A stretch of DNA of 64,000 nt from an uncultured Desulfosarcina sp. (GCA_963674945.2 CAXXWQ010000003.1:416001-480000); one strand, 5' to 3'; counted from the stretch's first letter, positions 1,051-21,077 are shown. The notes: a model not told the origin generated them from the letters alone. A program made the numbers and translations.

Positions 1051-1106
1051 TTCCGGTTTTTGAGGAGCCTCAAATCGTCGAACGATCTATCAGACATAAA
1101 AACGAT

Positions 1107-1580
1107 TTAATCAAAGGTCTGGCCCTTCGGGACCGCTGAATTTTCAGGTTGGATTTTTTTTCGTCTTCTGAAATTTCGCCATTCATTTTTGTCCAAGTAA
1201 GCAAATGATTGCGGTGCATTTGCCAAGGTTTTGCATTCATTCAAAGGTATCGCTTTATTGAACGACTTAGGATTATCAAGCAAATAGCATTTGCCAATCT
1301 CATATCCATAATAATATTTTGAAAAGTCCTGGTAGTTGATGAACCCTAAACTTCCAAACTCTTTCCATAATTTTTCAGGTGAATCGATAATGCATTCTTT
1401 TACATCACAGTAGCCTAATATTTCTTGGTCTGGTTTCGTTGAATAGATAACGATCTTTTGAATGTTGGACGGTACTCCATTGCGCCTGAATTCGACTGTT
1501 TTCTTGCCAGACAATATTGCTCGCGCATATATTGGATTTATTGATAAAATAATTATATGCTTAGTCTTGTTTTGATCCAA
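1107..1580 (-). CDS. ASCH/PUA-like domain protein
   Basis: ILSINPIYARAILSGKKTVEFRR motif and C-terminal APQSFAY. Confidence 0.85.
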   Translation of the reverse strand: MDQNKTKHIIILSINPIYARAILSGKKTVEFRRNGVPSNIQKIVIYSTKPDQEILGYCDVKECIIDSPEKLWKEFGSLGFINYQDFSKYYYGYEIGKCYLLDNPKSFNKAIPLNECKTLANAPQSFAYLDKNEWRNFRRRKKIQPENSAVPKGQTFD

Positions 1581-2927
1581 TTTACACCCTCTTGTTTTAG
1601 CTTCATAATTGATTGTGGGGCACCCTTTACAACCCCAGATCGTTTTAGCTCTTTTAACCCTAAAGGTGTCGTTAACCCTTTTACATATCGGAACCTAATA
1701 GCTAAAGTCGGTTTGATGCAAAACTCGGCTATGCTATTATAACTATATACAGTTCGTGAGCCAACATGTCTGGCTATTTCATTAGGATTTGTAGTACGTA
1801 TAAAATCTTCGACGGATCCTATTGCAGTAATTCCTTTAACATCTTCAGATCTATAGAAAAAAATGTTGTCACCAGTCTTAATTTGTTTATTGAGGGAATG
1901 GCATAGATATGCTTTTTTAATGCTATTTCCACAAGGACGAGTCTCGTTGAATATCTGGATTTGTGATTCCAGCTCAGGAAAGAGAGCTGAATGAAATATT
2001 GGTTTAATAGGAATTAAAAACGTATTGTTTCCTTTAAATAGAACACGCCTAGGACCATATTTGATATGGAATTCAAGAGGCGACATATCTTCAATATCTT
2101 GAGATGAATAAGTAAGTTTTTTATAAACGATTAATTCCCCGTTTTTACATTGTTTATTAAATACGCTGAATCCGAATGATTCTGAAAATGCGATTAAGTC
2201 ATCGTATTTTGGAAACGTTGTGAAATAGATATAGTCATAATTATTGTTGTCAGCATAGTCGAACACCGCCTTGAATAAAAGCTCGCCAAATCGCTTTCCA
2301 AATTCCATTTCGGATATCTTAAAGGTGCATAATTTTAAAGTCCGGCCTCTATCACCAGTTGGAACTTCTTCTTCGCTTTTAATTATACAAATTCCTGATA
2401 AACGAACCATTCCATCACTACATATCACATACGCTTCTCGATGATCTCTCTTGCATTTCGTCAACCACTTGTCAAACTTGGGGGAATAGTCTTGGCGTAA
2501 TGAGTTAAAAATTGGATCATTTTCATTCAGCTCGTATATATAAACTTTTTTAACGGATGGCGGTGGTGGCGGCGATTTATCAAAAAGATCAAGTAAAAGA
2601 GCTATCGCATCTTTAAGAAAGAACACTCTCGATTCAATACCTGATCGGTGGGCTTTACGGTGTAGCTTTTTATCTTCCGTGATTAGAAAATCAACTGCGT
2701 CACCTTTTACCGATGCCAGAAGGCAATTATCTACATAATCGTTACTGCCCAAGACAGGCTCGCCAACTATGTCTGGATCTAAAAGAGATAATGGAGGTGG
2801 GGATTCTATTCTTTCATATTTTTTTATAAGCCTTTTTCTTAACGTAGACCTTTCAGTATTCCTATCCCGATCTAAATCAAATCCGACAGCAGGATGAACA
2901 TAAATAGTGTTTCCTGACTTTTGAATT

Positions 2928-4493
2928 GTACGCATTCACAGGGTAACACCCATTGGATTAAATCCAGGAAAGGTTTGGCTCTAAATTTCGAAAATAGGAA
3001 GTAATGCACTCCACGAGAAAAGGAAAAGTCTGCTTTGCTTGTAAGCGACAGGTTTCTTTCAGTGACAATATCCGCTCAACCCAACGGTTTCCTTTCTCGC
3101 TTTGGGTGCCAAGGCTTCGTTTCCGCCACAATACACCAAAGCGTAGCGCTCTTTCGGCACGATTGTTTGTGGGATCGACGCCCTTGTGATCCATAAACAC
3201 CCATAGGTTGTTCATTTCCCGGATGATCTGCCGAGCGAGTTTTCCTGCATCCGTTTTATCGGGTTCCCAAAGGGACACGGTAAACAAGAAGAATGTATAA
3301 AAATCCGACCATTGCTTTGGGTCGGGTGGCTCTTTGGCAAACGATACCAGTTGTCTCAACCAAGCGGCGACGATTTCTCCGAAGCGACGTAAATCCGGCT
3401 TCTTTCTCTCCGCCAGAGAATCGGCCTTACGGATTAGATGAGCCAGGCACGTCTGGCGGTGAACCCATTTTTGATACAGGCCGTAACCGTCGCTGACCAG
3501 AATGCCGTTCCAGTCCTGGATGAGTGCTTCGAAAGCCACCTTGGAGCGATGCGGGTCTATGCGATAGAAAGCAACCCGCTCGTTGACCATGGCCCACAGC
3601 CAGTGCAGATCGTTTTCTGTAAACCAGGAGGTCTCATCGATATAATTGCACCAGAAACTTCTGGCGATACCCCCGATACGTTCATACACAGGCAAAATCG
3701 CCATTGAAGTGCGGTCAACGATTTTTTGGATCGTCCCCGTAGCAATGGGAATGTCTAACACAGAGTCGCATAACTGCTTTACGTCCATTCGGCTCATCCC
3801 TTTAATACCGCTTAATTCACCAACAAATGCGGTAAATCGGGGACCGTATCCGCTCGACAGGGCAGATGGCAGCTTGGCTTTGACAACCTTCCCGCAATTG
3901 GGGCAATCGCACTTGTGCAGAATATAGTGGCTGACTTCCATTTCGATTTTGGGAAGTTCGATCTGTTGATGGGTGTAAAAAGGCTTCATCTTTTCCTGAT
4001 CGAACACCGAATGACCACAACTGCAGCATTTTGGCATCAACGAATGTTGCTTTGTCGGCTCGAGCAGTTGTTGCTGGTGCGGTTTGTGTCCTTTTTGTCC
4101 GCCTTTGGATCGCTTGCTCTTTTTCTGTTTTCTTTTCTGCTTGCTAAAAGGCGGATCGGATGAGGGCGGTTTACTGGAATTACGAGAATTCATTTTGGTC
4201 TGGACTTCAAGTTTCTCTATGCGTTTTTCATGGGTCTCAACCCATTTTTGCATATCATGAAGCGCCTGTTCCAGATATAGGATGTAATTTCTCACCGCCT
4301 CTGGTGTCAGTTGCCAATCGAGTTCTGAAAATGGTCTTTTGAGTGCCATGAAAAGCACTCTAACATAGTTAAAAGAAAAAATCTAGATTTATTTTAAATT
4401 ATTTCAGGCAGTTACGGTGCACACAATTTATGCTTTGTTTTCAATGGGTTAAAGGCCATGATGTCAGCCCTAAAATGCCCCGTGAACGGTTAC
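2928..4493 (-). mobile_element. IS66-family element, single-ORF (ISBst12-like) type, 1566 bp
   Basis: Termini GTAACCGTTCAC / GTGAATGCGTAC; 8-bp TSD TTTGAATT at 2920-2927 and 4494-4501. Confidence 0.95.
2958..4358 (-). CDS. IS66 transposase (TnpC-like)
   Basis: NSSKPPSSD, zinc finger, DETSW, SDGY, CLAHLIR and TNNRAERALR motifs. Confidence 0.95.
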   Translation of the reverse strand: MLFMALKRPFSELDWQLTPEAVRNYILYLEQALHDMQKWVETHEKRIEKLEVQTKMNSRNSSKPPSSDPPFSKQKRKQKKSKRSKGGQKGHKPHQQQLLEPTKQHSLMPKCCSCGHSVFDQEKMKPFYTHQQIELPKIEMEVSHYILHKCDCPNCGKVVKAKLPSALSSGYGPRFTAFVGELSGIKGMSRMDVKQLCDSVLDIPIATGTIQKIVDRTSMAILPVYERIGGIARSFWCNYIDETSWFTENDLHWLWAMVNERVAFYRIDPHRSKVAFEALIQDWNGILVSDGYGLYQKWVHRQTCLAHLIRKADSLAERKKPDLRRFGEIVAAWLRQLVSFAKEPPDPKQWSDFYTFFLFTVSLWEPDKTDAGKLARQIIREMNNLWVFMDHKGVDPTNNRAERALRFGVLWRKRSLGTQSEKGNRWVERILSLKETCRLQAKQTFPFLVECITSYFRNLEPNLSWI

Positions 4494-4694
4494 TTTGAAT
4501 TAACCTATGAAACTCCAGGGCATGATCCGTGTTAATTCCAAAATCGGAAATTGTCCCTGGTTCTAATGGGACAATGATGTTTGTATCAATTAAGAATTTC
4601 ATTGGTCATATTAATTCAAGGCCAGCACTCTGGCTCTTAGGTAAGGGCCTCTTTTTATATATAATTCTTGAGTAGCCGATTGTTTGGCATTCAT

Positions 4695-5483
4695 TCAAAT
4701 ATATAGCGGACTCTTATAGCTGTTTTTTGTTAACCATTTCTCATATCCATCTATCTCTGGACCACCGAGATTCATTGCATATTCAACACCAAAGATTGCA
4801 AAAACAACAAAGAACTCACTGTCAGAGGTGACAAGGATTTTAAACTCATGAAGAACCTCGTATGGTTCCCCGCCAGGCTCGCAAAACAGAAAATCGCTTG
4901 GGTATATCCGTCGGACGCTTATAGGCCAGTCGTTATGCCCGCAGTTCCATCTGACAAAGTTACGCAGATCACTTAGCTCTGGTTTGAAGGCAATATCATA
5001 ATTTGCACCAGCCACATTAAGCGCACGGTGAGCAAGCACCTCAAGCCCAACCTTACCAATGAACCGTGCAAGTGAAGGACAGGGTTCTGGCATCGGTGTG
5101 TGGGGCAGTAAAAGAGTCCCGAAAGTGTTCTTTGTATAAGATTGAATCCAACGTGAAGGATCTTCATCTCTCGCTGCACCAACTGCAAGCCCTTCTCCGT
5201 TAGGTAAGTGGAAAGCCTCAATTTTTGTGCGAGATTGGACATGGAATCCCGTGATATATGGGATTCTTCCCCGTTTATTTGGGACGGCCATTTGAAAACG
5301 GGCCTCTGTAAGGTGCAGAGATTCTAAAAAGGGTTTTTCGATCTTAATCGAAAAATAATGGTTGCATTTGTCGCATACCCAACCACGTGGAAGAACATGG
5401 TCAGTGTTTCCAAGAGACTCAGGGATGATATGCTCCACAGACTTTGACGAATTAGATACTGATTGGCAAAAAATGCAGTTCAT
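4695..5483 (-). CDS. HNH endonuclease
   Basis: CIFC...EHIIPESLGN...VCDKCN. Confidence 0.85.
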   Translation of the reverse strand: MNCIFCQSVSNSSKSVEHIIPESLGNTDHVLPRGWVCDKCNHYFSIKIEKPFLESLHLTEARFQMAVPNKRGRIPYITGFHVQSRTKIEAFHLPNGEGLAVGAARDEDPSRWIQSYTKNTFGTLLLPHTPMPEPCPSLARFIGKVGLEVLAHRALNVAGANYDIAFKPELSDLRNFVRWNCGHNDWPISVRRIYPSDFLFCEPGGEPYEVLHEFKILVTSDSEFFVVFAIFGVEYAMNLGGPEIDGYEKWLTKNSYKSPLYI

Positions 5484-5493
5484 TGTCTAAGTT

Positions 5494-5610
5494 GCCGAAC
5501 GCTGCTGTTCACCAGGCGGGCGGCGCCAAAGGAAAGCCGCCATAAAGCGAAAAAAAATACTTAAAAAAACGCCGAGGTAGCCCGCTCAGTGTGCAACAGC
5601 CTTGTTATGG
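5494..5610 (-). other. attC-like integron cassette site (117 bp)
   Basis: Minus strand CCATAAC-aagGCTGTTGCAC...GTGAACAGC-agc-GTTCGGC: AAC/GTT cores, imperfect inverted repeat with extrahelical base, located between the kinase stop and HNH start. Confidence 0.75.
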
Positions 5611-5624
5611 TTTTTTAACTTTGG

Positions 5625-6791
5625 TTAATTCAGTGTTTCAATGTTTTGAAAGGCTTGGTTCAATTCATCAACGTTTTTAAATCTTATATCGTTGTCTTTG
5701 TGAAGACCTTTTTCAATAAAGTCTTTTAGGTTTGGCCTAACTTTATCAAAGTTAGTTTTCCCTGTTAGTACGAAGTAAAGGATACGAGTTAAGGCGTATG
5801 TCTCGTGTAAAATATTATAATTGTTAAACCCTTCAACTAATAAATTGGGGTCATTCAAATATCCTTTAAACTCAGTACTTAGCGACGTAAGGCTACTATT
5901 GGGTATTCTAACCAGACCAAAGTCAGCAATTTTAACAACAGGAACATCATCATATAGCTTCAGTAATATATTTTTCGGGCTGATATCTCTGTGTAATAAT
6001 TTTTTTGAGTGTATATACCTGAAAGCTTGGATAATTTGATTTCCGAGTTTCTTTTTCTCTTGAAACGAAAGCTTTGTGTTATTTGCGATTATATAATCCT
6101 TCAAAGAAATATCCATAAAATCCATAATATATTCTTGTTTCTTGTCGTTATAACTGAAAACTTCGAGAATATAAGGAGAATTTAGAGAGTTCATTTGCTC
6201 AAACTCCCTCTTGAACCTTTCTATTTCTTTGTCATTCAAATCTTTTTTTGCTCTTTTAAGTGCAAAAGTTTTTTGGTAAAAATCGTCAAAATATTTAAAG
6301 ACTAGAGCATAAGAACCTTCGCCTATCAATTTTAAATTTTTTACAGTCTTTTGATTTTCAATAACAATTGATTTTTGAGGAATGAAAATCGGTATTGTAT
6401 AATATAGTTCAATTTTATCTGTATTTGGTGGAATTTCACTACCACCACTTCTACTTAAAAAAGACTTACATAAAGATATTATTTTTTGATAATTTTCATC
6501 AATTGTGAACGCAAGTTGTGAATGTTTAAGAGACCTTTCCAATGCTTCGATTATTGAAATAATATTAATTAATTCACGACTTGGATCTGCCCAGAAATGA
6601 GCCATACTACCATCGCTTGTTGGTAACCTCTCATTCATTGTGTCAAATAGGTCAATCAACTTAGCGTGAAGTGTCGAAAACAATTTTTTAAGCTTTTCGT
6701 TGCTGAATGACTCGTATAAATCTTCGTATTCATTGCTTAACGAGTCTATCAGCTTTCTATAATGAGATTCAATTGAGTTTTGAGTTTTCAT
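5625..6791 (-). CDS. Ser/Thr protein kinase with uncharacterised N-terminal domain
   Basis: IGEGSYALV, ALKR, HRDISPKNIL, DFGL motifs. Confidence 0.9.
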   Translation of the reverse strand: MKTQNSIESHYRKLIDSLSNEYEDLYESFSNEKLKKLFSTLHAKLIDLFDTMNERLPTSDGSMAHFWADPSRELINIISIIEALERSLKHSQLAFTIDENYQKIISLCKSFLSRSGGSEIPPNTDKIELYYTIPIFIPQKSIVIENQKTVKNLKLIGEGSYALVFKYFDDFYQKTFALKRAKKDLNDKEIERFKREFEQMNSLNSPYILEVFSYNDKKQEYIMDFMDISLKDYIIANNTKLSFQEKKKLGNQIIQAFRYIHSKKLLHRDISPKNILLKLYDDVPVVKIADFGLVRIPNSSLTSLSTEFKGYLNDPNLLVEGFNNYNILHETYALTRILYFVLTGKTNFDKVRPNLKDFIEKGLHKDNDIRFKNVDELNQAFQNIETLN

Positions 6792-6836
6792 ATTTCATAA
6801 CAACACTTCATTTAAACCGTTTGAGTTACTTCCAAA

Positions 6837-6902
6837 CCAGAACGTGCAGGTAACTTGCCGGGCGCGTCGTTTTGCCCGGTCAAGTTCACTTGCTGGTTAT
6901 GA
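6837..6902 (-). other. attC-like integron cassette site (66 bp)
   Basis: Minus strand TCATAAC-cagcaaGTGAACTTGACCGGGC...GCCCGGCAAGTTAC-ctgcac-GTTCTGG. Confidence 0.8.
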
Positions 6903-6912
6903 AATTTTGTTG

Positions 6913-7401
6913 CTATTCATATAGTGGTTGATGAAAATAATGTTTCACTTTGTCATCTATTTCCATCAGTTCACATAAAATCAGTATTGAGTGTTTTATT
7001 AGCTTCGTATCCCGAGAAATTTCTTTTGAAGAACCATGTTCAAATTTTCCACCATGAAAAAGATTGTTACGAATACGACAAATCATTGTTACCAAAAAAT
7101 GTATTGTTGGAGTATTTTTATCTAATGGGAAATCCTGCCATTCTAAATGACCATCCACAATAGCTTGTTTTTTAGGTGGAGACTTTTTTATATACTCAAC
7201 GGCCTGTTTGAAAGCATCAGATTTATTTTCATTAAAATCAGGACGAATTTTTTTTGCAAATTTTTGCCAATTGGCCGATACATAATCCTTATTTTCTAGA
7301 AATCCAGATGCTTTCAATGCATACTCAGATCTTGAAAAGATGTAAAAAAACTGTTCCGCATATGTTTTCTTCACTTTTAAGCAATCTGTGATTGTTTTCA
7401 T
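6913..7401 (-). CDS. HEPN-domain protein (putative RNase)
   Basis: RNNLFH (RxxxxH) motif in a small helical protein. Confidence 0.7.
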   Translation of the reverse strand: MKTITDCLKVKKTYAEQFFYIFSRSEYALKASGFLENKDYVSANWQKFAKKIRPDFNENKSDAFKQAVEYIKKSPPKKQAIVDGHLEWQDFPLDKNTPTIHFLVTMICRIRNNLFHGGKFEHGSSKEISRDTKLIKHSILILCELMEIDDKVKHYFHQPLYE

Positions 7402-7630
7402 ATTTTGTCTTTCATAACATTAATATTCTATAGGACTTAAAATAGATGATTTCATACTACCACGTATTTAGAACCAGTTCTTTATCAGGAAATTGGAAAT
7501 GTAGATGGACAGAATATCCAAAGATATTAAATATGTCAATTACAGGCTGGTATGGTTTCGAACGCGCAGAATTTGGTAGGTAAGCACCCTTGCCCAAGGG
7601 TTGCCACGAGTATCATCGTTTTTCCTATTA

Positions 7631-9286
7631 CCTGTTTCCGTGGCACAAAACCTGATTAAAACACTATAACCAATTGATAAAACATATATATTATGGTAAT
7701 ATTAGGGCACTAAACGCTCACTTCGGAGGTGAAATCAATGCGGCGTCCGATCACCATAAAACACGAGATGGAAAAACTTGCCAGTCATAGCGGATTGATC
7801 AATATCGGCGCATTACTTGATGCGATAAATTTCAGGTTCCGTTTCGAAAAGATCAACGGCGTCCATTGTGTAGACCCGAAAATTTCTCATGGTGACATTT
7901 TAGCTTCGATGATTGCTCTCATGAGTATTGGTAAACCTGATTACGATGCGATCGAGATTTTTCGTGAGAAGCAAGAATTTTTCAACAAGGCCATTGGCAA
8001 TCGTGCATGCCCGTCAAGCCCGACATTGCGTCAGCGAATCGATTTGATCGGCAACCAAGCCGATAAGCTGATTAAGGATGCAGGCGTTGATTTGGTTCGA
8101 TCCTGCGCTCCGGCGATTTCACCCATCCAAACCAGTGCGGGTGATTTCCTTCCTTTGGATATGGATGTGAGTCCGTTTGACAACTCAAAGACTCAAAAGG
8201 AAGGCGTTTCCAGAACCTACAAAGGCACGGATGGCTTCGCTCCGATCTTTGCCTACCTGGGCACCGAGGGGTATCTGGTGAATCTTGAGTTCAGAGAAGG
8301 AAAACAACACTGCCAGAAAAACACCCCCGAATTTATCAACGCCACCTTGGATTATGCCAGGCAAATTACCGATCAGCCTATTTTGATGAGGTTGGATTCA
8401 GGAAACGACAGTCAAGACAACTTTCCTGACGATTCACGAAAGAATGTCCACTTTATCATCAAACGCAATTTGCGTAGAGAATCTGTTCAAAAGTGGGTTG
8501 ATCTGGCAAAAAAATCCGGCAAGCAACAGCATTGCCGCTCAGGAAAATGTGTATGGATCGGAAAGACGATTGAAGACATCAACGGCAATCCATTGCGCTA
8601 CCCAATCATCTTTGAGGTTACCGAAAGGCATACCAAAAAGGGCCAAGTACTGCTGTTCCCCGAGTATCAGATCGATACCTATTGGTGCAGCCTCGCACAG
8701 TTGCCACCGGATGAGGTGATTCGACTTTATCACGATCACGGTACCAGCGAGCAGTTTCACTCCGAACTCAAATCCGACATGGGCCTGGAGCGCTTGCCGA
8801 GCGGTCATTTTTCCACCAATAGCTTGATTCTTCATTTGGCGATGCTGACGTACAACATGCTACGGATTATCGGACAAATCAGCATCGAAGAGAGTGATCC
8901 GACTGAATTGCCCGGTATACGCCGGAAGAAAGTTACCCGGCGTCGAATCCGGACAGTCATGCAGGACTTGATGTATATGGCCGGTCGATTAGTAACCAGA
9001 AGTAGAAAATGGTACATATCCTTTGGCCAACTCAATCCATTTTCCAAACTGATGGATCGGATTTATCTTCGTCTGAATTTGCTTTCCGCTATGAAGTAGC
9101 TATAATTTTTAAAAGAACAATTTTACAGGCATTTGCTTGGTGATTTGCTATGGCTAAAGAATGAGAAACAGGAGCAAAATTCCTTCGAAATTTGAAAATA
9201 GTGAGAAAAATTATCAACAAATGATGGTGTGTGAGGCAATCGCCCCGCGCCAATCCTAACAGCAAAAATTAGGCCACTGATTCAGG
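7631..9286 (+). mobile_element. IS1380-family element, 1656 bp
   Basis: Imperfect IRs CCTGTTTCCGTGGC / GCCACTGATTCAGG (11/14); 5-bp TSD TATTA at 7626-7630 and 9287-9291. Confidence 0.9.
7729..9099 (+). CDS. IS1380-family DDE transposase
   Basis: LDMDVSPFDNS, RLDSGND, YHDHGTSEQFHSELKSD. Confidence 0.9.
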   Translation: MKSMRRPITIKHEMEKLASHSGLINIGALLDAINFRFRFEKINGVHCVDPKISHGDILASMIALMSIGKPDYDAIEIFREKQEFFNKAIGNRACPSSPTLRQRIDLIGNQADKLIKDAGVDLVRSCAPAISPIQTSAGDFLPLDMDVSPFDNSKTQKEGVSRTYKGTDGFAPIFAYLGTEGYLVNLEFREGKQHCQKNTPEFINATLDYARQITDQPILMRLDSGNDSQDNFPDDSRKNVHFIIKRNLRRESVQKWVDLAKKSGKQQHCRSGKCVWIGKTIEDINGNPLRYPIIFEVTERHTKKGQVLLFPEYQIDTYWCSLAQLPPDEVIRLYHDHGTSEQFHSELKSDMGLERLPSGHFSTNSLILHLAMLTYNMLRIIGQISIEESDPTELPGIRRKKVTRRRIRTVMQDLMYMAGRLVTRSRKWYISFGQLNPFSKLMDRIYLRLNLLSAMK

Positions 9287-9371: not shown

Positions 9372-9989
9372 CTAAAGTACCGCAATATCCAACGCCACCG
9401 GAGCCCATCGATCATCCGGAGAAACACGCTCGTATATCCTCAAATAGCTTTTGGATCCGACAACCTGCATACTGTCGCTGATCGCATTCATGGCCCGAAG
9501 CCATTTTTCGTCATCAATGGCCAGGCGACGAAGCCCAAGAATACGGCTGGTATTCAAACGCCCCTCCTTGTCAACCTGGAATGCATCCATGATGATGGTC
9601 TTGATTTCGTCCCGGCTGCCGTCCGCCCACTCCGTTATGCATTCGTCCACAAGCGCTTTTGCCGCCTTTAGTCGTTCGTCGAATGTCAGATGTTCGCTGA
9701 TGGCGATCTGGACCTTTGTTTTTCCGTCGAATGATACGAGTGACGTGTTCCCCTTGCGCCCCCCGAGAATGACGTCATATTTCTCGGCGGATAGCTCGAC
9801 GAACGCCTGGACATCCCCCATCGCCCTCGCCTTGAAATCGGCGATCTTCAGTTGAAGGGATTTCGCCGCATCCGCGATCTCGCATACCAGTTTATGGCGT
9901 TCCTGGTCGATCTCCGGGATCATGGACTTGGGTACCAGGCGGCCATGGGCGTCTCTCATGTAATCGTTCAGGTTCAGTTCTTCAGACAT
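9372..9989 (-). CDS. DUF3164 family Mu-like phage protein
   Basis: GGRKGNTSLVSFDG...FDERL..AKALVDECI...AFQVDKEG. Confidence 0.85.
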   Translation of the reverse strand: MSEELNLNDYMRDAHGRLVPKSMIPEIDQERHKLVCEIADAAKSLQLKIADFKARAMGDVQAFVELSAEKYDVILGGRKGNTSLVSFDGKTKVQIAISEHLTFDERLKAAKALVDECITEWADGSRDEIKTIIMDAFQVDKEGRLNTSRILGLRRLAIDDEKWLRAMNAISDSMQVVGSKSYLRIYERVSPDDRWAPVALDIAVL

Positions 9990-10002
9990 CGTTTATCCTC
10001 CT

Positions 10003-10215
10003 TTAAATTTCGTCACAGGCTTTCTTTTTCTCGATATGCGAATCCTCGACAAGGTCGTCGGTCCTGCATTTTAAAATGTAGCCGGCCAGCGCCGATTTCA
10101 GGCACTCCGCTAGGAAAAACAGGTTTTTTACGGCTTTCGGTGAAAGTGAACCGTTCAAGGATTCCCCCTGCCGTCCGATCACCTCCACAATCTCCTTCAC
10201 CTTCCGATACCCCAT
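10003..10215 (-). CDS. small hypothetical phage protein
   Basis: Tightly packed in the early operon; GGAGG upstream. Confidence 0.45.
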   Translation of the reverse strand: MGYRKVKEIVEVIGRQGESLNGSLSPKAVKNLFFLAECLKSALAGYILKCRTDDLVEDSHIEKKKACDEI

Positions 10216-10243
10216 CGTAATCCTCCACGCTCCATGCTCTCAG

Positions 10244-10516
10244 CTATGAGCTCTCAACTCTCAGCTTTTCCTCATACAGTTTCCGGCTCAGTACGCTCAC
10301 CGCCTTCTGGTCGATATGATCGATGGAGATGATCACATCCATGTCCGGGTGCCAGTACAGGGCCAGGCGCCGGTACTCCTCGCCGTTTTTCAGGCGAAAC
10401 GACTTGCAGCTTTGCACCCGAACGCTTCGCCGGATGATTTCCCGGATCAATAGCTCCGTCGGGGCGCCCCCGACGCGCTGTCGCCAGTTATCGATGAAAT
10501 GCCAGGAAAACTTCAT
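10244..10516 (-). CDS. hypothetical phage protein
   Basis: ATGA overlap with gemA stop. Confidence 0.55.
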   Translation of the reverse strand: MKFSWHFIDNWRQRVGGAPTELLIREIIRRSVRVQSCKSFRLKNGEEYRRLALYWHPDMDVIISIDHIDQKAVSVLSRKLYEEKLRVESS

Positions 10517-10932
10517 CGTGCGCTCACCTTCCTCTTACCGCGTGCCCGCCTCTGGTGGTACGTCAACGCGGCAACGATCTTCCGCAAGCCATCCGGATCG
10601 CACCACTCCACCATATCCGCCCCGCACATCCGCTGGGCCATGCTGTCCACATAGGATCGTGGCAGGTTCATGTCCAGGCACATGGCGTTGATCTTGGACA
10701 TCAGCCGCTTTTTATACTCCGTAACGGAATTGAATCCACGCAGCCTTTTCCTCTTTTTAAAACCAAGGTGCTCGAAATGTTCGAGCACGCTTGAAAAGGT
10801 CCTGTCGTTCAGATCCCTGCTGCTCCTGGCGCCATTGCCGTGGGCGGCCAGGATGTCCTGGTACTCGGCATCACTCAATCCGAGCTGAGACTTCGCCACA
10901 TGGATGAGCGCTTTCTTCCCGTTGCTGATCAT
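10513..10932 (-). CDS. gemA: GemA / DUF1018 (Mu gp16-like) regulatory protein
   Basis: ALIHVAKSQLGLSDAEYQDIL...SSRDL; start re-called at ATG 10932. Confidence 0.8.
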   Translation of the reverse strand: MISNGKKALIHVAKSQLGLSDAEYQDILAAHGNGARSSRDLNDRTFSSVLEHFEHLGFKKRKRLRGFNSVTEYKKRLMSKINAMCLDMNLPRSYVDSMAQRMCGADMVEWCDPDGLRKIVAALTYHQRRARGKRKVSAR

Positions 10933-11110
10933 GTCCCCTCCACGGTTGCAGTTTGTTGAGAACAGCCCTGGGCATGACCCACGTGGAAATCGGCCACACG
11001 CTGATGGATCCGCAGACCGGGCACGTGCTGTCATCACGGCGGTCCTTCGCGTCGAAAACCATGTCGCAATTGGCGCAGAAACAGGCGCTCTCGATCCGAA
11101 ATGCGTTCAT
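10871..11110 (-). CDS. small Zn-ribbon phage protein
   Basis: CANC...CPVCG; AGGAGG before ATG 11110. Confidence 0.45.
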   Translation of the reverse strand: MNAFRIESACFCANCDMVFDAKDRRDDSTCPVCGSISVWPISTWVMPRAVLNKLQPWRGHDQQREESAHPCGEVSARIE

Positions 11111-11138
11111 ACAGCCTCCTTTAAATCCTTTCCGATCG

Positions 11139-11708
11139 TTATTCATCGATCGCCTCCACCACGGCCACGGCAACGTCCAGGCTTTCCTGGATCGCGTGCA
11201 GGGCCTCTCTTGCAGTCTTTTTTAATTCCCGGATCTGTCGCATCTTCTCCGCGTTCTCATCGTTTCGTACCAGGTTCGGCCCGGGGTCATCGATCATCCG
11301 GTATTTGGACGGCTGATTGTCCGGCATCTTGATCATTCGCATCACACCCCGCCGGACCAGCATCTGCAGATACTCCTTGGCAGTGTTCTCCTCCACCTTG
11401 CAGTTGGCCATCAGGTCGGTAACGGAAATGGTGTTCCGCCGGTTCGCCCGGATCAAACGGTACATGCATCTGGTTTTCGTGGCCGGATGGGGATCGTACC
11501 GCTTGCCCGTGTACCGGATCACGCCGGGACTGATCCGGACAACCTCATCACGCTTGATGAAATCCCGCATGGCGTTGTAGAGACGCTGCTTCTCTTTGTC
11601 CTCGATCATGTCCAGCCGCTCTGCGATTTCCTGATATGTAATCTGGTCCCGGTCCTTGAAATCGATGCGCATGATGTCTCGGATGCGTTGGGCGAAAGAT
11701 ACGGTCAT
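11139..11708 (-). CDS. winged-HTH phage protein
   Basis: Two wHTH-like segments (TYQEIAERL; SVTDLMANC...AKEYLQML); GGAGG before ATG 11708. Confidence 0.6.
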   Translation of the reverse strand: MTVSFAQRIRDIMRIDFKDRDQITYQEIAERLDMIEDKEKQRLYNAMRDFIKRDEVVRISPGVIRYTGKRYDPHPATKTRCMYRLIRANRRNTISVTDLMANCKVEENTAKEYLQMLVRRGVMRMIKMPDNQPSKYRMIDDPGPNLVRNDENAEKMRQIRELKKTAREALHAIQESLDVAVAVVEAIDE

Positions 11709-11724
11709 GGAGACCTCCTGATGT

Positions 11725-11821
11725 TGATGACCTCGTAAAAAGCTGCTGTTCGGACGGATTCGTAAAAAGCCCGAGATCAAGGATTGCGAGTCTCGAGGTC
11801 GGGCTTTTTACGAATCCGTCA
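11725..11821. repeat. MITE-like palindromic element (TGACGGATTCGTAAAAAG family)
   Basis: Terminal IRs TGATGACCTCGTAAAAAG / CTTTTTACGAATCCGTCA flanked by ATGT; related end at about 22466. Confidence 0.6.
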
Positions 11822-12574
11822 ATGTTTGGCCCAGCGGATGGCCGCCTTGATGCCGTCCGTTGCGATATCCGGCGTGATTTCCTCGATATTTTTTGCGTTG
11901 GCGTACTGAACGCAGTAATGCAGGGCGCGCTTTACCAGACGGAAATTGCCGTCGGTGGTATACTTTGTGGCGGTTTTATGCAGGATGGCCGCGACATCCG
12001 CAGTGATCTGAACACCGATGGCTTCTTTTGCGAAAATGATCACGTCGCTCTGTTTCATGGGGGAGAATTTCACAGGACTGAAGGTGCGCGTCTGGATTCC
12101 GTCTTTGCCTCCTTGTTTAAGGAGGTTCATCAGATTATGCTCACCGATCAACACAATCGGGCACGTGGTCACGCGTGTTATATCGCGCATCAACTCGAGG
12201 TGGCCCGGTTTCAGCCTGCCTGCCTCATCGATAAAGATTATCGTATCCTGGTGATCGAACAGATAATCGTTTATGTCGTTGAAACATCTTCCTTTGCGGC
12301 TGGCAACGTTTTCGATTCCCAACTCGAAGCAAAAATCCCGCAGAAATTCCAGCTCGCTTGAAATCCATATTGCCGTTGATTCGAGATATATCGTGTTGTT
12401 GTGATTGGCGTGGTACCATTTGATGGTTTCGGATTTACCGAGTCCGGCCTTTCCGTATACGACACCGAATTTTCCCTCTCCGACATCCATTCCGAGATCG
12501 TCCATCATGATGACAACATCCCGGACGTTCTTTGTCTGAATGAAAACCGAATGAGATATACTCAATTTCGTCAT
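11819..12574 (-). CDS. MuB/TnsC-like AAA+ transposition ATPase
   Basis: GKAGLGKS Walker A, IIFIDEA Walker B; directly downstream of the transposase. Confidence 0.85.
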   Translation of the reverse strand: MTKLSISHSVFIQTKNVRDVVIMMDDLGMDVGEGKFGVVYGKAGLGKSETIKWYHANHNNTIYLESTAIWISSELEFLRDFCFELGIENVASRKGRCFNDINDYLFDHQDTIIFIDEAGRLKPGHLELMRDITRVTTCPIVLIGEHNLMNLLKQGGKDGIQTRTFSPVKFSPMKQSDVIIFAKEAIGVQITADVAAILHKTATKYTTDGNFRLVKRALHYCVQYANAKNIEEITPDIATDGIKAAIRWAKH

Positions 12575-12617
12575 ATGAACACTCCCTCCAATAAACGGTT
12601 AACCCCTTTCAGATTTG

Positions 12618-14750
12618 TCACGTCGTCCCCGTCATCACCGACGCGCAAACGCGGGCCTGCTCCCAATACCCGCTCTTTGCAAGCGTCTTGTATTTCGGGG
12701 TCTGCTCGAAATACCGCATGAAGGTGAGCCACTGTTTCGGGATCATCACGCCGCTCGCCGCCAGGTGGACAAGCGTTTCATACCGGTCCGGTTCATCCAT
12801 GCCGTCGAGCTCGGCGAAAACGTTGGGCTCTTCTTTCTCGTGGTTTTCGAAATACGCCGCGGCCTCCGCCTCGATCTGCTTTTCGTCGGCTGCGGTGAGA
12901 TGCTTTGGAGCGGATTCTCGATCGATTATCACTGGGCCGGTAGGCGTTACACCCTCACGCAGTAGTTGCCGGCGGTGGGCCGGCAGCACCTCTTTTTCCA
13001 ACAGCAGCTTGGACAGGCCGCTGGCCAGCTTGTACTGGTGGTTTTTGATCGCGAGCTGTCGGTCCAGTTGATCCACATCCTCTTCGGTGCCAAGCGGTCT
13101 TGCTGCCGGGTGGGTCTTCTCCTGTTCAAAGGCGAGGCAGACGAATTCATCCTCTTCAAACACCGCGATATAGCTCGGGTCCTGCAGATCGTACCGCACC
13201 TCGACGCTATGGTGGCGGCCGCACAGTTTGTCATGGTAGTAGTAGCTGCCCATATGAGAGATCCGGCTGGCGCGGACCACCGCGTCCTTTCGGGCCCACA
13301 TCAAAGCGGTCAGTTTCGCCGGATCGATTCCCTTGCCGCGGCCCGGTTCGAAAAGATCCATCGGCGCCCAGCCCTTCAGGTACTTGCTGCGCGGTTGCGG
13401 ACGGTGGGCGTATTCGTCGAACCATTCGGCCACCATTTGGTGGGCCATTTCCATCGTCACATACTCGCCGCCCATCACCTTTTCATAGACCTTCCTGTGC
13501 AGCTTCTCCCCCCGGTTCATGCGCGGCGGCTTCTTGGCGATGCTGGTTCCGGTGTAGCTCGGCGATTTTCTCTCCATCTCCGCCATCGTTCCGAAAAATC
13601 GCTCCACGGTCTTGCTCTGCCCGTGATACCCCCACGCGAATATCGTCTGGATGCCGAGCTGGTCGTACAGGCCCTTGAGCCCGGCCTGCGAAAGATCGGT
13701 GTTCTGGAAATAGTTGGCCTTGAACGCCTTGCCGTTGTCCAGGTAGACGACGCGAGGGATCTTGCCCAAAAATAGGATGGCCCTGCGAAGTGCGGAGGAA
13801 ATTGCCACGGTGTTTTCCGTCGGCATGATCTCCCATCCGCACGGCATGCTCGATCGCATGTCGTAGAAAGTGATCAGCGTCATCCGCTTTGGTTTGCCGG
13901 TCCACGGATTCAGGATGTTGAAATTGAGCTTGTGCCCGTCCGCCACCAGCACATCGCCGACATTGATCAGTTCCGGGTTCCGCTCGATGGACAGGCAGCA
14001 CTCGTCGTTCCACCGCTTCTTGCCGCCACGCTGAAAACACCAGATATCATAATTGTGCTCTTTGAAATCCATAATCCACCGGCGGTACGTGGATGGGTTG
14101 TGGCCGTTGGGGATGCCCACCGCCGACATCCGTTTTTTCGCCTCCCGGATCACCTCCGAAATGAGCAGAGCGTTGGGATGAAGTGCCACCTGGAGAATGA
14201 TCGCGGCCTGTTTTGCCGTGATGATCCGCTTCCCTTTTCGCGCCTTGCCCCGCCGGTCCGCCAGGTTCCCGCCGTCCCGCACCGTCCGCTTCCATCCCTC
14301 GATGGTCTGCCAGGACACCGGCCCGAGGATTTCGTGGATCTGTTGATAGATGAGCCCGTTGTTGTAGGCCGTCATGAAGTTGTCCCGGGCCACCGCCTTC
14401 TTACCGTGACCGGCGGCGGATATGGTCCTTACATAATGACCGAGAAGATCGGCCTTGGCGCCGAACGTTCGCCGCTGCGCATCGCTCATCTCCTCCACCG
14501 GCGTCTTTTTCGCCGGAAGATGGGATGAGGATTCTGCGGGCAGGTTGGAAAGCCGGTCCTTATTATAAAGGACGCGGATATCCTCCGGCAGATTGTCGAC
14601 CGGGTACCGCCGGATCTTCCCCCCGCGCCCCTTGCCCGGCATCTCCATGAAATGCCACCCCTCCTTCGATGCGCGTGCCTGGAGGGACCGCACGCCGACA
14701 CCGGCGAATTCGTGGATCTGCTGAATGGAAAGGGTCGTCTCGCCAGTCAT
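12618..14750 (-). CDS. MuA-like DDE transposase
   Basis: N-terminal Mu DNA-binding-like region, VADGH / YLDNG / TVERFF catalytic triad, VEVRYD C-terminal domain; start re-called at ATG 14750. Confidence 0.9.
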   Translation of the reverse strand: MTGETTLSIQQIHEFAGVGVRSLQARASKEGWHFMEMPGKGRGGKIRRYPVDNLPEDIRVLYNKDRLSNLPAESSSHLPAKKTPVEEMSDAQRRTFGAKADLLGHYVRTISAAGHGKKAVARDNFMTAYNNGLIYQQIHEILGPVSWQTIEGWKRTVRDGGNLADRRGKARKGKRIITAKQAAIILQVALHPNALLISEVIREAKKRMSAVGIPNGHNPSTYRRWIMDFKEHNYDIWCFQRGGKKRWNDECCLSIERNPELINVGDVLVADGHKLNFNILNPWTGKPKRMTLITFYDMRSSMPCGWEIMPTENTVAISSALRRAILFLGKIPRVVYLDNGKAFKANYFQNTDLSQAGLKGLYDQLGIQTIFAWGYHGQSKTVERFFGTMAEMERKSPSYTGTSIAKKPPRMNRGEKLHRKVYEKVMGGEYVTMEMAHQMVAEWFDEYAHRPQPRSKYLKGWAPMDLFEPGRGKGIDPAKLTALMWARKDAVVRASRISHMGSYYYHDKLCGRHHSVEVRYDLQDPSYIAVFEEDEFVCLAFEQEKTHPAARPLGTEEDVDQLDRQLAIKNHQYKLASGLSKLLLEKEVLPAHRRQLLREGVTPTGPVIIDRESAPKHLTAADEKQIEAEAAAYFENHEKEEPNVFAELDGMDEPDRYETLVHLAASGVMIPKQWLTFMRYFEQTPKYKTLAKSGYWEQARVCASVMTGTT

Positions 14751-14752
14751 TT

Positions 14753-15358
14753 TTATCCCTCGAGCAATCGTTTCAGGCCGTCGATGATCTTGATCATCTT
14801 TTTCCGGTCGACTCCCTCGAACCTGTTTTTTCTCGCATCCCGAATACTCTGAATCAGATCCTCGAACGCTTTTTTGAAGATGTCGGGGAGCGTTCCGATG
14901 GAATTCTCGATCATATTCCTCGTTCGTGGCTGCGGGTTTCCACGCAGAAGGTCCACCGCCCACACCACATGCTTGGACATCACCACGTCCGCGCCGGACT
15001 CCTTCGCCCGGTTGATGGCCATGTCCCAGGCCTTTGCCTGCTCTTCCGGTTCCAGCTTCGCAAGCGGCCGTGCCAGTGACTCTTTTTCGGGCAGCACCGG
15101 ACAGGTTTTGTCCGCATTGCGGACATTTTCGATCACCTCAACACCGGTGATCAGTTGGTAGGCCGTCGACCTGGCGCAGTCGAATCGCTCCTTGGTGTAC
15201 TGCTCGAAAGTCGCGTGGGACATCCGGTACAGCTTCCGGTCCCGGATCTCCCGCAACGCAAACCCGACCTTCATCCACGACACCATGTTGTCCTCGACAA
15301 CCCTCTCAAGCCGGTCCAGGTCGTTGATTTCGTTCATTGATAGTTGTGTTTTGTCCAT
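14753..15358 (-). CDS. hypothetical phage DNA-binding protein
   Basis: GFALREIRDRKLYR...TFEQY..ERF motif; AAGGAG RBS. Confidence 0.65.
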   Translation of the reverse strand: MDKTQLSMNEINDLDRLERVVEDNMVSWMKVGFALREIRDRKLYRMSHATFEQYTKERFDCARSTAYQLITGVEVIENVRNADKTCPVLPEKESLARPLAKLEPEEQAKAWDMAINRAKESGADVVMSKHVVWAVDLLRGNPQPRTRNMIENSIGTLPDIFKKAFEDLIQSIRDARKNRFEGVDRKKMIKIIDGLKRLLEG

Positions 15359-15430
15359 CTTATCTCCTTTGTAACTTTTTTGATTTCCTGTTATGTTTAA
15401 TTCATTGACAATTCATCTATCCCGGAGGTT

Positions 15431-15841
15431 GTGGTGTCGAAAAAACAGAAAAAGATGGAATACAGCTCAGACCAGTCTCTTGGTATGCTTGCAGGTTGCC
15501 CGTTTAGTGGATTTGGACCATGCCAGGCAGAAAAGTGCGTTTTTTTCGTAGCCGTTCCACCTGACTTAAAAGAAAGAGCGTGCGTCATTACTGCGTCCTA
15601 CGTTTTTCAATCCATGAAGGATGTACTTGAGACAACGGTATTTTTGGAAAGGACGTTAGAAAAAGACGGCATCCTTCCCAAGAGTCATGTAGCCGCTCAA
15701 GTTGCCGAATCTCTTGTTGGATGTTTGGATCGTCTTGACGGTATCTACGGTCATCCAAAGACTGACGAATCATTGAAAGAATTGATTCGCACATTGAAAG
15801 GCCAAATTCGGTACCGCCTAGAAACCTTTGCTGAATCATGA
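15431..15841 (+). CDS. hypothetical Cys-containing protein, antisense to the early operon
   Basis: GGAGG RBS, CPF...C...C; competes with the overlapping minus ORF 15588-15887. Confidence 0.4.
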   Translation: MVSKKQKKMEYSSDQSLGMLAGCPFSGFGPCQAEKCVFFVAVPPDLKERACVITASYVFQSMKDVLETTVFLERTLEKDGILPKSHVAAQVAESLVGCLDRLDGIYGHPKTDESLKELIRTLKGQIRYRLETFAES

Positions 15842-15883
15842 TGCTGCTCCTTTTCGTTTTCGTTATTCCAAGAGGATTCGTCA

Positions 15884-16141
15884 TCATGCCGCGTCCTGCT
15901 CCCAGAAACGTTCACCCAGACGCGATTCGATAAATTCTCGTATCTCCTTTGCCTTTCGCCGCCCGTTCACCACCTGGGAGATGTATTGGGGGGACACGTT
16001 AAGATGGTCCGCCCATTCCGCCATCTTTTCCCCTTTCCGGATGGCCGTCGCCCGGATCCGACGGGCGATGATCTTCCGCCCGACGGCCTTCCGGTCGTCC
16101 TTCTCGTCAACAAAAATCGTGAATGTCACTTTCCGCTTCAT
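15884..16141 (-). CDS. Ner/Cro-like HTH regulator
   Basis: MAEWADHLNVSPQYISQVVNGRR; start re-called at 16141. Confidence 0.7.
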   Translation of the reverse strand: MKRKVTFTIFVDEKDDRKAVGRKIIARRIRATAIRKGEKMAEWADHLNVSPQYISQVVNGRRKAKEIREFIESRLGERFWEQDAA

Positions 16142-16569
16142 TACAGCTCCGCCTCGATTTTCCGGACAAGCCGGTTTTTCTCCTTGATGGCCAGCTTGGC
16201 CTCGGCCAGCCTGATGAGTTTCTGCTCCCGCTCGCCGACAACTCTCAGATGCAGCGGCTGGGCGATGGCGTCGAGAACGGAGCACCGCCCCACCGCCGCA
16301 CAGAAAATCGGAACCGCCTTGAAAGGGATGTTCCTCGTCGGCTCGTTCAGGTTCAGCCATTTTTCAAACGTGTCGATGGTCAACTGCTTGCCACTGCCGT
16401 TGACCAGGCCGACACTGTAGCTCACAGCCAGATCGTTCATCTTGTCCACGATCTGCTCACGGGAAAGTCCGCAGGCGCGGACATCTTCGTTCATGGCCCT
16501 TTTGACGGGCCGGACAACATTTAAGGTGGGTCGATTAAAGAGGTTCAGTTGGATGGGTTTGTTCGTCAT
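16141..16569 (-). CDS. phage regulatory protein (CII-like, tentative)
   Basis: First gene of the early operon, AGGAAGG RBS, LSREQIVDKM helix. Confidence 0.55.
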   Translation of the reverse strand: MTNKPIQLNLFNRPTLNVVRPVKRAMNEDVRACGLSREQIVDKMNDLAVSYSVGLVNGSGKQLTIDTFEKWLNLNEPTRNIPFKAVPIFCAAVGRCSVLDAIAQPLHLRVVGEREQKLIRLAEAKLAIKEKNRLVRKIEAEL

Positions 16570-16723
16570 GTCCGCCTTCCTGGCGTCCGCTGTCCGAAAT
16601 TAGGGATCATTCGGACATTGACAGTTTTTACCCTTCGGGATAGGGTAAATTTGCGCGTTAACTTGTAAAGCAAGATACTACCCTTTAAGTCTGTCGTCAA
16701 GCAAAAAGTGCGTAAAAAGGCAG

Positions 16724-16832
16724 TTCGTTAGTCGAAATGCCAATTGTACGTATAAGTGTTTAAAAAATTAGAAGAAAATGACTAACGAAATAGATTCGTT
16801 AGTCATTCGTTAGTCGAGATATGACAAACGAA
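16724..16832. promoter_or_regulatory. operator-like repeats TTCGTTAGTC
   Basis: Copies at 16724, 16780 (inverted), 16795, 16806 and a 1-mismatch inverted copy at 16823, between the divergent repressor and early genes. Confidence 0.6.
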
Positions 16833-17300
16833 TTAGAAAAATTAGATTTCCCAGCCAGACTTGAAGCCCTTATAGACCACACAGGACTACCTAAAAAGGT
16901 ATTCGCAAAAAATTGCGGGATAAAAGAAAAACAACTGTTCGTTTATCTAAGAGGTGAAGCTGAGCCGGGTATGAAGGCTTTGCGTGGCATAAAAGAATAT
17001 TATCCAAACGTAAGTATCGACTGGCTAATATCAGGCATCGGTCCATCTTACCTTGAACAAAAAAAACCGGCGCCTTCAACTGTGCAGGATATTAAGTATG
17101 AAAGTGTCCTCAATGAATTTGAGGACAAGGATTTCGCGATAAAGGTCAATCAAGCACTGGCGGCCATAGAAAAGTTGTCGATGAAGGTTTTCTATGAGGT
17201 GGGTGGATATATAAAGAGAGCCGCTCAGGAAGCAAAGCAGGAAGATCAAGCCTTCGATGAAGATCGATTGACTGGCACGGATGACAATTCAAAAAAATAG
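16821..17300 (+). CDS. CI-like XRE HTH repressor
   Basis: RLEALI...KVFAKNCGI...YLRGEAEP...VSIDWLISGIG. Confidence 0.85.
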   Translation: MTNELEKLDFPARLEALIDHTGLPKKVFAKNCGIKEKQLFVYLRGEAEPGMKALRGIKEYYPNVSIDWLISGIGPSYLEQKKPAPSTVQDIKYESVLNEFEDKDFAIKVNQALAAIEKLSMKVFYEVGGYIKRAAQEAKQEDQAFDEDRLTGTDDNSKK

Positions 17301-17398
17301 ATGCTGACGAGCCTTCCCTGTTCAAGCAGAGAGAAAAAGATGATTCCCGTTGTGATCCGCCCGTCAGCATAATCGATTTTCACAGCGGCCATGTAGAA

Positions 17399-17722
17399 AT
17401 GATCCTGAACACCTCTGGCTACATCATCACCGCCAGGGCCTATGGCACCATCGAGAATGCGGCGAGCCATGAACTTTGGTACGCCAGAGGTCGTTATCTC
17501 CAGGATTTTAAGTACCACATCGATGAAATAGATCTAATCATCACCACGATCCAAAAAGCCGCAAATGAATTGCTTGAAACTCCGTTCAATTTTGGATGGA
17601 GAGGGGTCACAAGAGTCGGCCTTGTCACGCCGATAAATGACAGATTCGTTGTCCTGCGGTTATACGCTCCACGTGAAAAGCTGGAAGATACGACTTCGGA
17701 ATTTGATAAAGCAGGAGGGTAG
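17399..17722 (+). CDS. hypothetical protein
   Basis: ORF only. Confidence 0.4.
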   Translation: MILNTSGYIITARAYGTIENAASHELWYARGRYLQDFKYHIDEIDLIITTIQKAANELLETPFNFGWRGVTRVGLVTPINDRFVVLRLYAPREKLEDTTSEFDKAGG

Positions 17723-17894
17723 CGCCATGAATGTTTTCAGCACTTAACCACCGTATTTCCCGGGATATCTCCAACGCACCTATAATCCCACATCTCCAAA
17801 TAAAGAATTAGCTCCAAAACGATCATAGACTGAAACCGTCTATAGAATGTCAATGTTTTAAGCCTACTAAAAATATTAAATTAGGGAGGAAAGA

Positions 17895-18479
17895 ATGACC
17901 GCTAAAGGTGAAAAAGATGCAATTTTGTTTGCATTAGCTGAGTTGTTTGCAGCTTTAAAAGGAAACATGAATGCTAATGCGGTTCGTTTTGATGAGGATA
18001 AAATTCCAACCTATGGGCTCCGTGTTGCTGAGCAGTCTTTTGGAACGGCCTATCAGTTAGTTAACGAACAGTCGATTCCATTACCCAAACCCATCACCAT
18101 CGTTATTGAGGCTGCTATTAAGGGAGCTGGTATTGGAATAAAAGCATGGGCACAATCTATGAAAGATGATTGGGGAATGATAGCTCCGAAATGCGGCGCA
18201 CATTGTAAATTGTGCAATTCGAGAAGTACAGCTCTATACTTTAACGCTATTTCAAAAATATTTGATTATAGTATAAAAAGTAAATCAAAATGGGACAAAA
18301 AAGACGCTCAAAAAGTTTCAACAATAAGCGAAAGTGTCAATAAGTCTTTGGTTGACTATGCTGATGAGGTTGTTAAAACGAGTTCTTTCGCTAATGCCTG
18401 GACTGCATGGGACGCCTTTGGTGATAATCTATTTTCTCTTGCGGAACCATTAGCAAAGCTTCTATCAACTGATTATTAA
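17895..18479 (+). CDS. hypothetical protein (AT-rich cargo)
   Basis: Strong GGGAGG RBS, 194 aa. Confidence 0.7.
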   Translation: MTAKGEKDAILFALAELFAALKGNMNANAVRFDEDKIPTYGLRVAEQSFGTAYQLVNEQSIPLPKPITIVIEAAIKGAGIGIKAWAQSMKDDWGMIAPKCGAHCKLCNSRSTALYFNAISKIFDYSIKSKSKWDKKDAQKVSTISESVNKSLVDYADEVVKTSSFANAWTAWDAFGDNLFSLAEPLAKLLSTDY

Positions 18480-18572
18480 AACATACTGTGGCTTATAATA
18501 GTATTAAGTGCGACGGCAAAAAGCCGTCGCACCTTATGCCGAGCTTCGTTAGAAAAAACAGAGGAACAAAAT

Positions 18573-20021: not shown

Positions 20022-20070
20022 ACCGAACTCCATTTCTTAATAGACATCAAAAACTGGCGCCAGAGGTCGG

Positions 20071-20141
20071 AAGGGGTCAAGTCTGCTCTTGGCTCATATA
20101 GAGATTGTGGATTGAATTTGCCCTCAATGGTCTTTAAATAG
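20071..20141 (+). repeat. 71-bp direct repeat, copy 1
   Basis: AAGGGGTCAAGTCTGCTCTTG...TTTAAATAG; 65/71 identical to 21078-21148. Confidence 0.9.
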
Positions 20142-20232
20142 AGCAAGCTTGGATCGGCGATTTTTATCCCTATTTGGGATGTTATTAAGGCGTCCATAGA
20201 ATATCAATAATAGTCACAATAAAGGAAAAAAA

Positions 20233-20778: not shown

Positions 20779-20803
20779 TGAAAAACAAAAGTAGGAACAT
20801 GCC

Positions 20804-21058
20804 ATGAAGATATTGATCGAAGCAGTGGCAGAAGATCCGAAGGCGGACATCAAGGAAAACACGCGTCGACAGAGAGTTATTGATGCTAATGCGATTCTTG
20901 AGGCACTACTTCTTGAATATGGCGTCGATGCAGCTCTTGAGGCTGTAGTCAATCAAGGATTCAGTGCGGGAGGCAATTATAGCACAATCGCAAAACAACT
21001 GTACGACTTTGCACTGGAACGAAAGGCCGCAAGGATGGGGAAGACGAAGTCGGCGTGA
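20804..21058 (+). CDS. small hypothetical protein
   Basis: AGGA RBS, follows the nuclease gene. Confidence 0.5.
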   Translation: MKILIEAVAEDPKADIKENTRRQRVIDANAILEALLLEYGVDAALEAVVNQGFSAGGNYSTIAKQLYDFALERKAARMGKTKSA

Positions 21059-21077
21059 AATTATGGGGGTGAATGGA

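Follow-up and report, generated by a model that had tools for sequence, protein, structure and literature searches.

Clusters of attC sites without an integrase (CALINs; Cury et al. 2016, PMC4889954) have been described, of which 95% have no intI pseudogene nearby and whose origin is left open in that account. The array reported here resembles them in having at least 2 attC sites, co-oriented genes, no nearby intI, and an intI elsewhere in the genome, but, whereas the CALIN definition as worded there is silent on a leader, this array starts at a conserved module common to many loci, hereafter called the pad. The CALIN of the Shewanella prophage M16-3 (Qi et al. 2023, PMC9892861) likewise begins with an attI, lacks an integrase, and is surrounded by structural genes of the phage. 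According to that report, however, M16-3 uses the ordinary attI of its genus and holds a complete integron in the same prophage, whereas the pad is unlike the intI-adjacent attI of its genus, was not found beside intI, and is multicopy. SALIN/attG insertions (Loot et al., 10.1101/2022.09.11.507474) share with our locus cassettes that lie outside an integron platform and are expressed (here by prediction) from a nearby promoter, but the sites reported there are many and unlike attI, whereas the pad is one recurring sequence family. Small HEPN-like and HNH-like cassettes similar to 2 of ours, likened by domain type alone, occur among the integron anti-phage cassettes of 2 reports (10.1101/2024.07.02.601686; 10.1101/2024.07.02.601719), and no kinase cassette appears among those that the text of these reports describes. 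The kinases Stk2 and PD-T4-6 are also stand-alone Hanks kinases on mobile DNA, but the N-terminal domain found here is unmatched in them, and the C-terminal part of Stk2 is absent here. CALINs, and a prophage CALIN with its own attI, are therefore already known from these sources, and what is new is a pad family that stands beside intI in no sampled copy. No description of this family was found in the literature searched; a similar site could be present among the 30 marine attI families aligned in a figure of PMC3146285.

We analyzed a stretch of 64,000 nt (the window; C3:416001-480000 of the source genome, an uncultured Desulfosarcina sp.), in which an array of 3 ORFs and 2 hairpins lies on the minus strand. 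A first-pass annotation, made from the sequence, had listed the ORFs, the hairpins, and the pairs of core and R'' sites, and all of these coordinates check on that strand. Its interpretation of the array as integrase-less, single-gene attC cassettes in a Mu-like element stands, but it missed the pad leader, an intI elsewhere in the genome, and a deleted piece within the array. On balance, we consider it probable that these are 3 integron cassettes behind a stand-alone promoter-plus-attI-like pad in a Mu-like prophage, likely inserted successively by an IntI from elsewhere. The features, in window coordinates, are as follows.

9372..17300, minus strand: Mu-like early region (DUF3164, GemA, B, A, repressor)
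7631..9286, plus strand: IS1380-like element with a 5-nt target duplication, ~90 nt upstream of the predicted -35 box
7419..7551, minus strand: leader ("attX"), made up of a promoter region and an attI-like site; 62 nt present in full copies are deleted from its interior
7511..7539, minus strand: predicted cassette promoter TTGACA-17-TATTCT (10/12 match), 93 nt before the crossover
7412..7418, minus strand: crossover core GTTATGA of cassette 1, 7/7 with TCATAAC
6913..7401, minus strand: cassette 1 gene, encoding a 162-aa predicted HEPN-type RNase
6837..6902, minus strand: attC1, canonical, with 2 extrahelical bases (from fold, covariance models, and register scan)
6801..6842, minus strand: 42-nt piece between the attC1 core and the kinase core (from sequence)
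5625..6791, minus strand: cassette 2 gene, encoding a 388-aa Hanks-type Ser/Thr kinase
5494..5610, minus strand: attC2, with a long terminal loop and 3 extrahelical bases (from register scan and covariance model R3)
4695..5483, minus strand: cassette 3 gene, encoding a 262-aa protein with an N-terminal HNH_5 domain
4682..4688, minus strand: R'' box of the truncated attC3, 6/7 with GTTCGGC

As in integron cassettes, the core in front of each gene complements the R'' behind it: GTTATGA (7418-7412) and TCATAAC (6902-6896) agree at 7/7 positions in cassette 1 (HEPN), GTTATGA (6801-6795) and CCATAAC (5610-5604) at 6/7 in cassette 2 (kinase), and GTTCGGC (5500-5494) and GCCAAAC (4688-4682) at 6/7 in cassette 3 (HNH). 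The third attC is truncated, ending ~8 nt past R'', and keeps R'' alone. Both hairpins, previously called attC-like, are attC sites. Folding of the bottom strands, which the first-pass annotation had proposed, gave a canonical hairpin for attC1 (MFE equal to the centroid, z -4.79, 0 of 200 shuffles as stable), and the attC2 MFE structure retained the R box, the L box, and the bulges, with stability at the level of shuffles (z 0.18; z -0.07 with wider limits). All attC sites used to train our three covariance models (R1, R2, and R3) lay outside the window; the models were built in-house, give approximate E-values, and differ from the one that IntegronFinder uses. Among the short-site models, R1 ranked attC1 first (6837-6902, 17.1 bits, E 0.14) and R2 scored it at 21.6 bits (E 0.011), and neither matched attC2 (5494-5610). 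R3, built from 11 long attC sites and searched on window 1-40000, recovered attC1 and attC2 at their exact limits as its top 2 matches (25.2 and 24.7 bits, E ~0.003; next best 8.4). A strict register scan of the entire genome (7.08 Mb), with registers (three-bulge for attC2) picked with the window sites already in view, identified 6 sites including attC1 and attC2 (14/15 and 15/16 pairs), and 0 sites were identified in a block-shuffled 2.62-Mb contig. Two earlier attC heuristics performed less well, one missing both window sites and the other missing attC2. By our own models and the register scan, at least 2 attC sites thus lie in one cluster with no intI nearby, as CALINs are defined. Rfam identified 2 tRNAs in the window and nothing else.

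At the border between cassettes 1 and 2, both cores lie where they had first been placed, but the kinase core proved to be separate from attC1: a 42-nt piece (6842-6801) lies between it and attC1's own core, so that the kinase core stands outside attC1. This piece is likely the leftover of an internally deleted cassette. No cassette-skipping joint was seen in contigs of 4 sequencing runs, contigs of a kind unable to show absence. The attC1 sequence (window 6840-6889) recurs with different flanks in other organisms' contigs from public runs, as expected of a common attC family.

Sequence comparison identifies the crossover at 7418 as the end of a recurring, predicted promoter-plus-attI-like leader and not as a chance site, and the leader accounts for where the cassettes went in. 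Positions 7439-7551 (113 nt) are 80.5% identical to a copy at C4:1342834, and 18/18 positions agree at the core end; that copy (C4:1341-1343 kb) heads a second intI-less array of 2 cassettes. The TTGACA-17-TATTCT hexamers are kept in the window and C4 copies, and the promoter motif count in the leader region is not above chance by itself (11 matches vs. 11.2 expected). When aligned with full copies, the window pad lacks 62 nt of the repeat block, and it keeps only 15 nt of the conserved end beside the crossover (consensus ...AGACGTCTATWGAATATCAAT|GTT). With these 62 nt gone, and one and a half attC sites as well, this copy is probably on its way to becoming fixed cargo and may be frozen.

A profile built from other genomes only matched 12 places in the source genome (E<0.01), among them window 7512-7432 (E 6.7e-5), and none in the reversed genome; the window copy was missed by a shorter pad profile. 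Of 41 related genomes, 12 contained the pad pattern, as did 10 of 401 at the order level, and reversed-pattern controls gave 0. The pattern was also present in 49 metagenome loci and in 13 genome-contig loci, mostly of Desulfosarcina, Desulfobacteraceae, or deltaproteobacterial MAGs, with 0 exact matches among viral contigs. Other genomes and metagenomes together hold 71 distinct sites of the family outside the source genome. Similarity between copies fades 100-250 nt upstream, with a ragged course and no sharp edge. A likeness of the pad to dif sites was considered and dropped.

Further pad copies were noted within the source genome. A second set lies beyond the prophage repressor at window 17396-21736 (plus strand), where a core GTTTTAA at 17855 matches TTAAAAC just past the first gene at 7/7; the set includes a strong non-canonical hairpin (z -4.4) and a gene for a Sll1717-family ATPase, and eroded leaders lie near 20147-20247 and 21078-21189. 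At C4:1340-1348 kb (L011:10311-18015), a satellite-like element with integrase, excisionase, and primase genes carries a full-length pad and 2 cassettes; the first of them contains an HNH gene, and its core matches at 7/7.

The insertion point was analyzed across 31 sites, from which 5 without a co-oriented first ORF and 8 without a GTT core were left out. A perfect 7/7 R'' near the stop of the first gene was identified at 11 of the remaining 18 sites, 3 of these 11 in the source genome, whereas permutations that shuffled the cores gave a mean of 0.77 and reached 11 in 0 of 10,000. Among the 49 metagenome loci, 32 distinct loci had a complete first ORF, and 12 of them matched at 7/7 (permutation mean 1.0, maximum 6 in 5,000). 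A perfect match was absent at 7 of the 18 and 20 of the 32 sites, several of which had no visible attC. Two orthologous pad loci differ by a 197-nt indel that begins at the core, the indel itself having no clear attC. Like an attI, the pad therefore presents a fixed G|TT insertion point for different cassettes. Many of the first cassettes at other pads look metabolic rather than defensive, judged from translations alone.

Under our preferred reading, an integron integrase supplied from elsewhere would insert cassettes one after another at the pad, by recombination between the double-stranded pad and the attC of a circular cassette, the latter taking part as a folded bottom strand. The pad promoter would then transcribe the promoterless cassette genes, and the loaded pad would pass from host to host with the prophage.

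No intI lies in the window, as had been noted at the outset. The genome search for intI proposed in the first-pass annotation revealed an intact one that it had missed: the sole full intI of the source genome lies 1.78 Mb from the array and encodes an IntI 470 bits over the cut-off, with catalytic residues present and its own cassette array. Among genomes of the genus, several of them incomplete, intI was carried by 5 of 10 with the pad and 6 of 14 without it; because these frequencies are alike, co-occurrence neither backs use in trans nor names a partner. A GAAC-N4-GTTC palindrome precedes the host intI (C3; L014:18121-18208), with variants in several relatives, and resembles a Firmicutes-type LexA box. 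Three more copies of the intI-type attI/promoter region, all without intI, were observed at C1:366316, C4:2962822-2963082, and C3:1937227. At C1:366316, a pad end lies inside the array at the position where an attC would be, and an attC region at that locus shares 92% identity over 172 nt with one of the main integron.

The pad might instead be the ordinary attI-Pc of an integron class in which intI was deleted from every copy sampled, and the array what decay has left of a complete integron after its arrival in the prophage. In the account of PMC4889954, CALINs are recognized to arise by loss of intI, and the ragged 5' edge of the pad is like that left after deletions; by eye, short words and paired palindromes are common to the pad and the intI-adjacent attI of the genus, and the source genome also has intI-less copies of an intI-type attI. 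On sequence, the leader nevertheless differs from that intI-adjacent attI. In the complete integrons of the genus, attI lies at most about 500 nt from intI, yet no IntI, nor a recognizable piece of its gene, was found upstream at the 58 pad sites with at least 500 bp of upstream sequence (50 with at least 1 kb) among the 71. The reverse search agreed: the pad adjoined intI at 0 of 29 intI loci, where the pad profile had no match (best E 0.38), a result that points to no cognate integrase. The ~12 copies in one genome also have unrelated neighbors. With this evidence, we regard decay from a complete integron as rather unlikely. That the crossover is a generic secondary (attG) site that happens to lie behind a promoter, its upstream likeness being incidental, is in our view very improbable. 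In its favor, IntI inserts cassettes at very many genomic sites (10.1101/2022.09.11.507474), and just 15 nt of the conserved end remain beside the crossover in the window copy. However, attG sites are highly varied and unlike attI in the data reported there, whereas the target here is not short and non-recurring but a module of 100-250 nt that recurs at 71 sites and takes cassettes at the same base, and the permutation tests largely refute an attG origin.

A non-IntI tyrosine recombinase, such as a phage or satellite integrase, that targets the pad and also accepts attC circles seems to us scarcely credible. Recombinase matches were found at 4 of the 71 sites, 2 of them weak (24-33%) and 1.5-2.7 kb upstream and 2 downstream; the 2 upstream genes, of generic recombinase type, together with the recombinase gene beside the C4 copy and the partly palindromic pad end, fit such an enzyme. 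The upstream neighbors of the pads, however, share no common recombinase family, nor any common family save for one orthologous pair and a few common domains, and recognition of a folded attC requires the insertion specific to IntI, as stated in PMC4889954. Successive capture at the pad by an IntI from elsewhere is the reading we prefer.

The first-pass annotation had assigned HEPN, kinase, and HNH genes to the 3 cassettes. For cassette 1, the HEPN call holds through the RxxxxH motif characteristic of HEPN domains (here RNNLFH), invariant in 66 of 66 aligned sequences, with weak support from the fold. Its structure model (pLDDT 90.5) gave a weak fold comparison (Z <=5.6) with HEPN-bearing chains (Cas13, AbiA, and HEPN-toxin) among the top rows, no significant Foldseek match, and unnamed clusters only in the Atlas search. 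The protein itself had no match in Pfam, PADLOC, or NCBIfam, and 3 of the 66 family members matched HEPN_Apea (best E 0.005). Cassette 1 likely encodes an RNase.

Pfam bears out the other 2 calls, Hanks kinase for cassette 2 (PF00069, E 4e-32) and HNH_5 for cassette 3 (PF14279, E 1.4e-10, with 1218 homologues). The catalytic motifs of the kinase are invariant across 39 sequences, and its model aligns with PknB over 228 residues (Z 21.4, rmsd 3.0); cassette 2 is predicted to encode an intact Hanks kinase. Its N-terminal domain (~140 aa) had no Pfam name in 39 homologues and no usable match in the Atlas, and the PADLOC matches to Stk2 and PD-T4-6 cover the kinase domain only (residues about 149-385), not the full length. 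Relatives of the kinase were found neither in viral contigs nor in 400 phylum genomes at E 1e-60, and homologues are present on 89 plasmid records, the gene standing alone in the one record examined. The family includes 62 Campylobacter and 20 Lactococcus plasmid records at 41-48% identity, with the N-terminal domain conserved. Identity of the kinase with a known lactococcal Abi system was considered and finds no support in the text of PMC13064643.

Each of the 3 genes has >1,200 homologues, and at none of the 5 homologue loci examined did a gene adjoin the other 2; homologues stood as attC cassettes at 2 of 3 HEPN loci and 0 of 2 HNH loci. A fixed operon is rejected by the homologue loci that lack the other genes and by the HEPN loci that are attC cassettes. 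Neither of the outcomes that the first-pass annotation had set against its own reading, an absence of covariance-model hits and a fixed operon without hairpins, came about. No cassette protein matches a validated defense system over its full length in PADLOC or NCBIfam. Since HEPN-like and HNH-like integron cassettes have been reported to defend against phages (10.1101/2024.07.02.601686; 10.1101/2024.07.02.601719), defense is the likeliest role for the cargo, and we lean slightly toward the RNase-like, kinase, and nuclease-like products protecting the lysogen against other phages, judged only by domain type and position.

The array had been placed in a Mu-like element and indeed lies within a whole transposable prophage (~C3:389-433 kb), in which genes for transposase A and B, GemA, head, tail, and a terminal methyltransferase form one block; the prophage ends were looked for and not found. 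Downstream of the array are an IS66-split PDC-M11A-like gene with its ASCH partner, a TPR-repeat gene, and genes for terminase, head, tail, and the terminal methyltransferase, with late genes extending past the window start. With early genes upstream and late genes downstream, the array is located at the early-late junction. Related prophages carry other cargo at this position and lack the leader, and pad profiles had 0 matches in 15 related Mu-like prophage stretches, at least 9 of which span the junction and the rest of which are short; the pad is thus not a regular part of the phage. It is likely that the phage brings with it a portable pad for gene capture, which at this locus is filled with predicted anti-phage genes.

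Because integrase-less arrays in dozens of independent loci begin at a defined sequence that can be searched for, it becomes testable whether these arrays are still live and capture cassettes with an integrase acting in trans, or are dead remnants. The source genome has one pad copy within a Mu-like prophage and one within a satellite-like element, and phages could in this way gain access to the pool of integron cassettes. The pad also leads to first cassettes that would escape attC-based tools, in addition to 3 candidate defense genes. More tentatively, and less probably than not, the family may represent lineage-wide non-autonomous integrons, that is, an integrase-less promoter-plus-attI module that multiplies in genomes, borrows any IntI present, and rides prophages and phage satellites to capture and swap defense cassettes.

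Further Mu-like prophage regions were identified in the same genome at C3:1.965-2.007 Mb, C1:0.41-0.43 Mb, and C4:1.77-1.81 Mb. Window 1097-4602 (minus strand) holds a candidate defense pair resembling PDC-M11A/B (GNAT-EVE and ASCH), the first gene of which is split by an IS66 at 2928-4493 with an 8-nt duplication. Behind this pair, a weak attC-like site at 1097-1154 (15.9 bits, without a fold) suggests that the pair may be a fourth cassette. Window 21919-22120 contains an exact 101-nt tandem duplication just before 2 tRNA genes, and short repeats at 11714-11820 and 22455-22760, with >100 dispersed matches in the genome, are REP/MITE-like.
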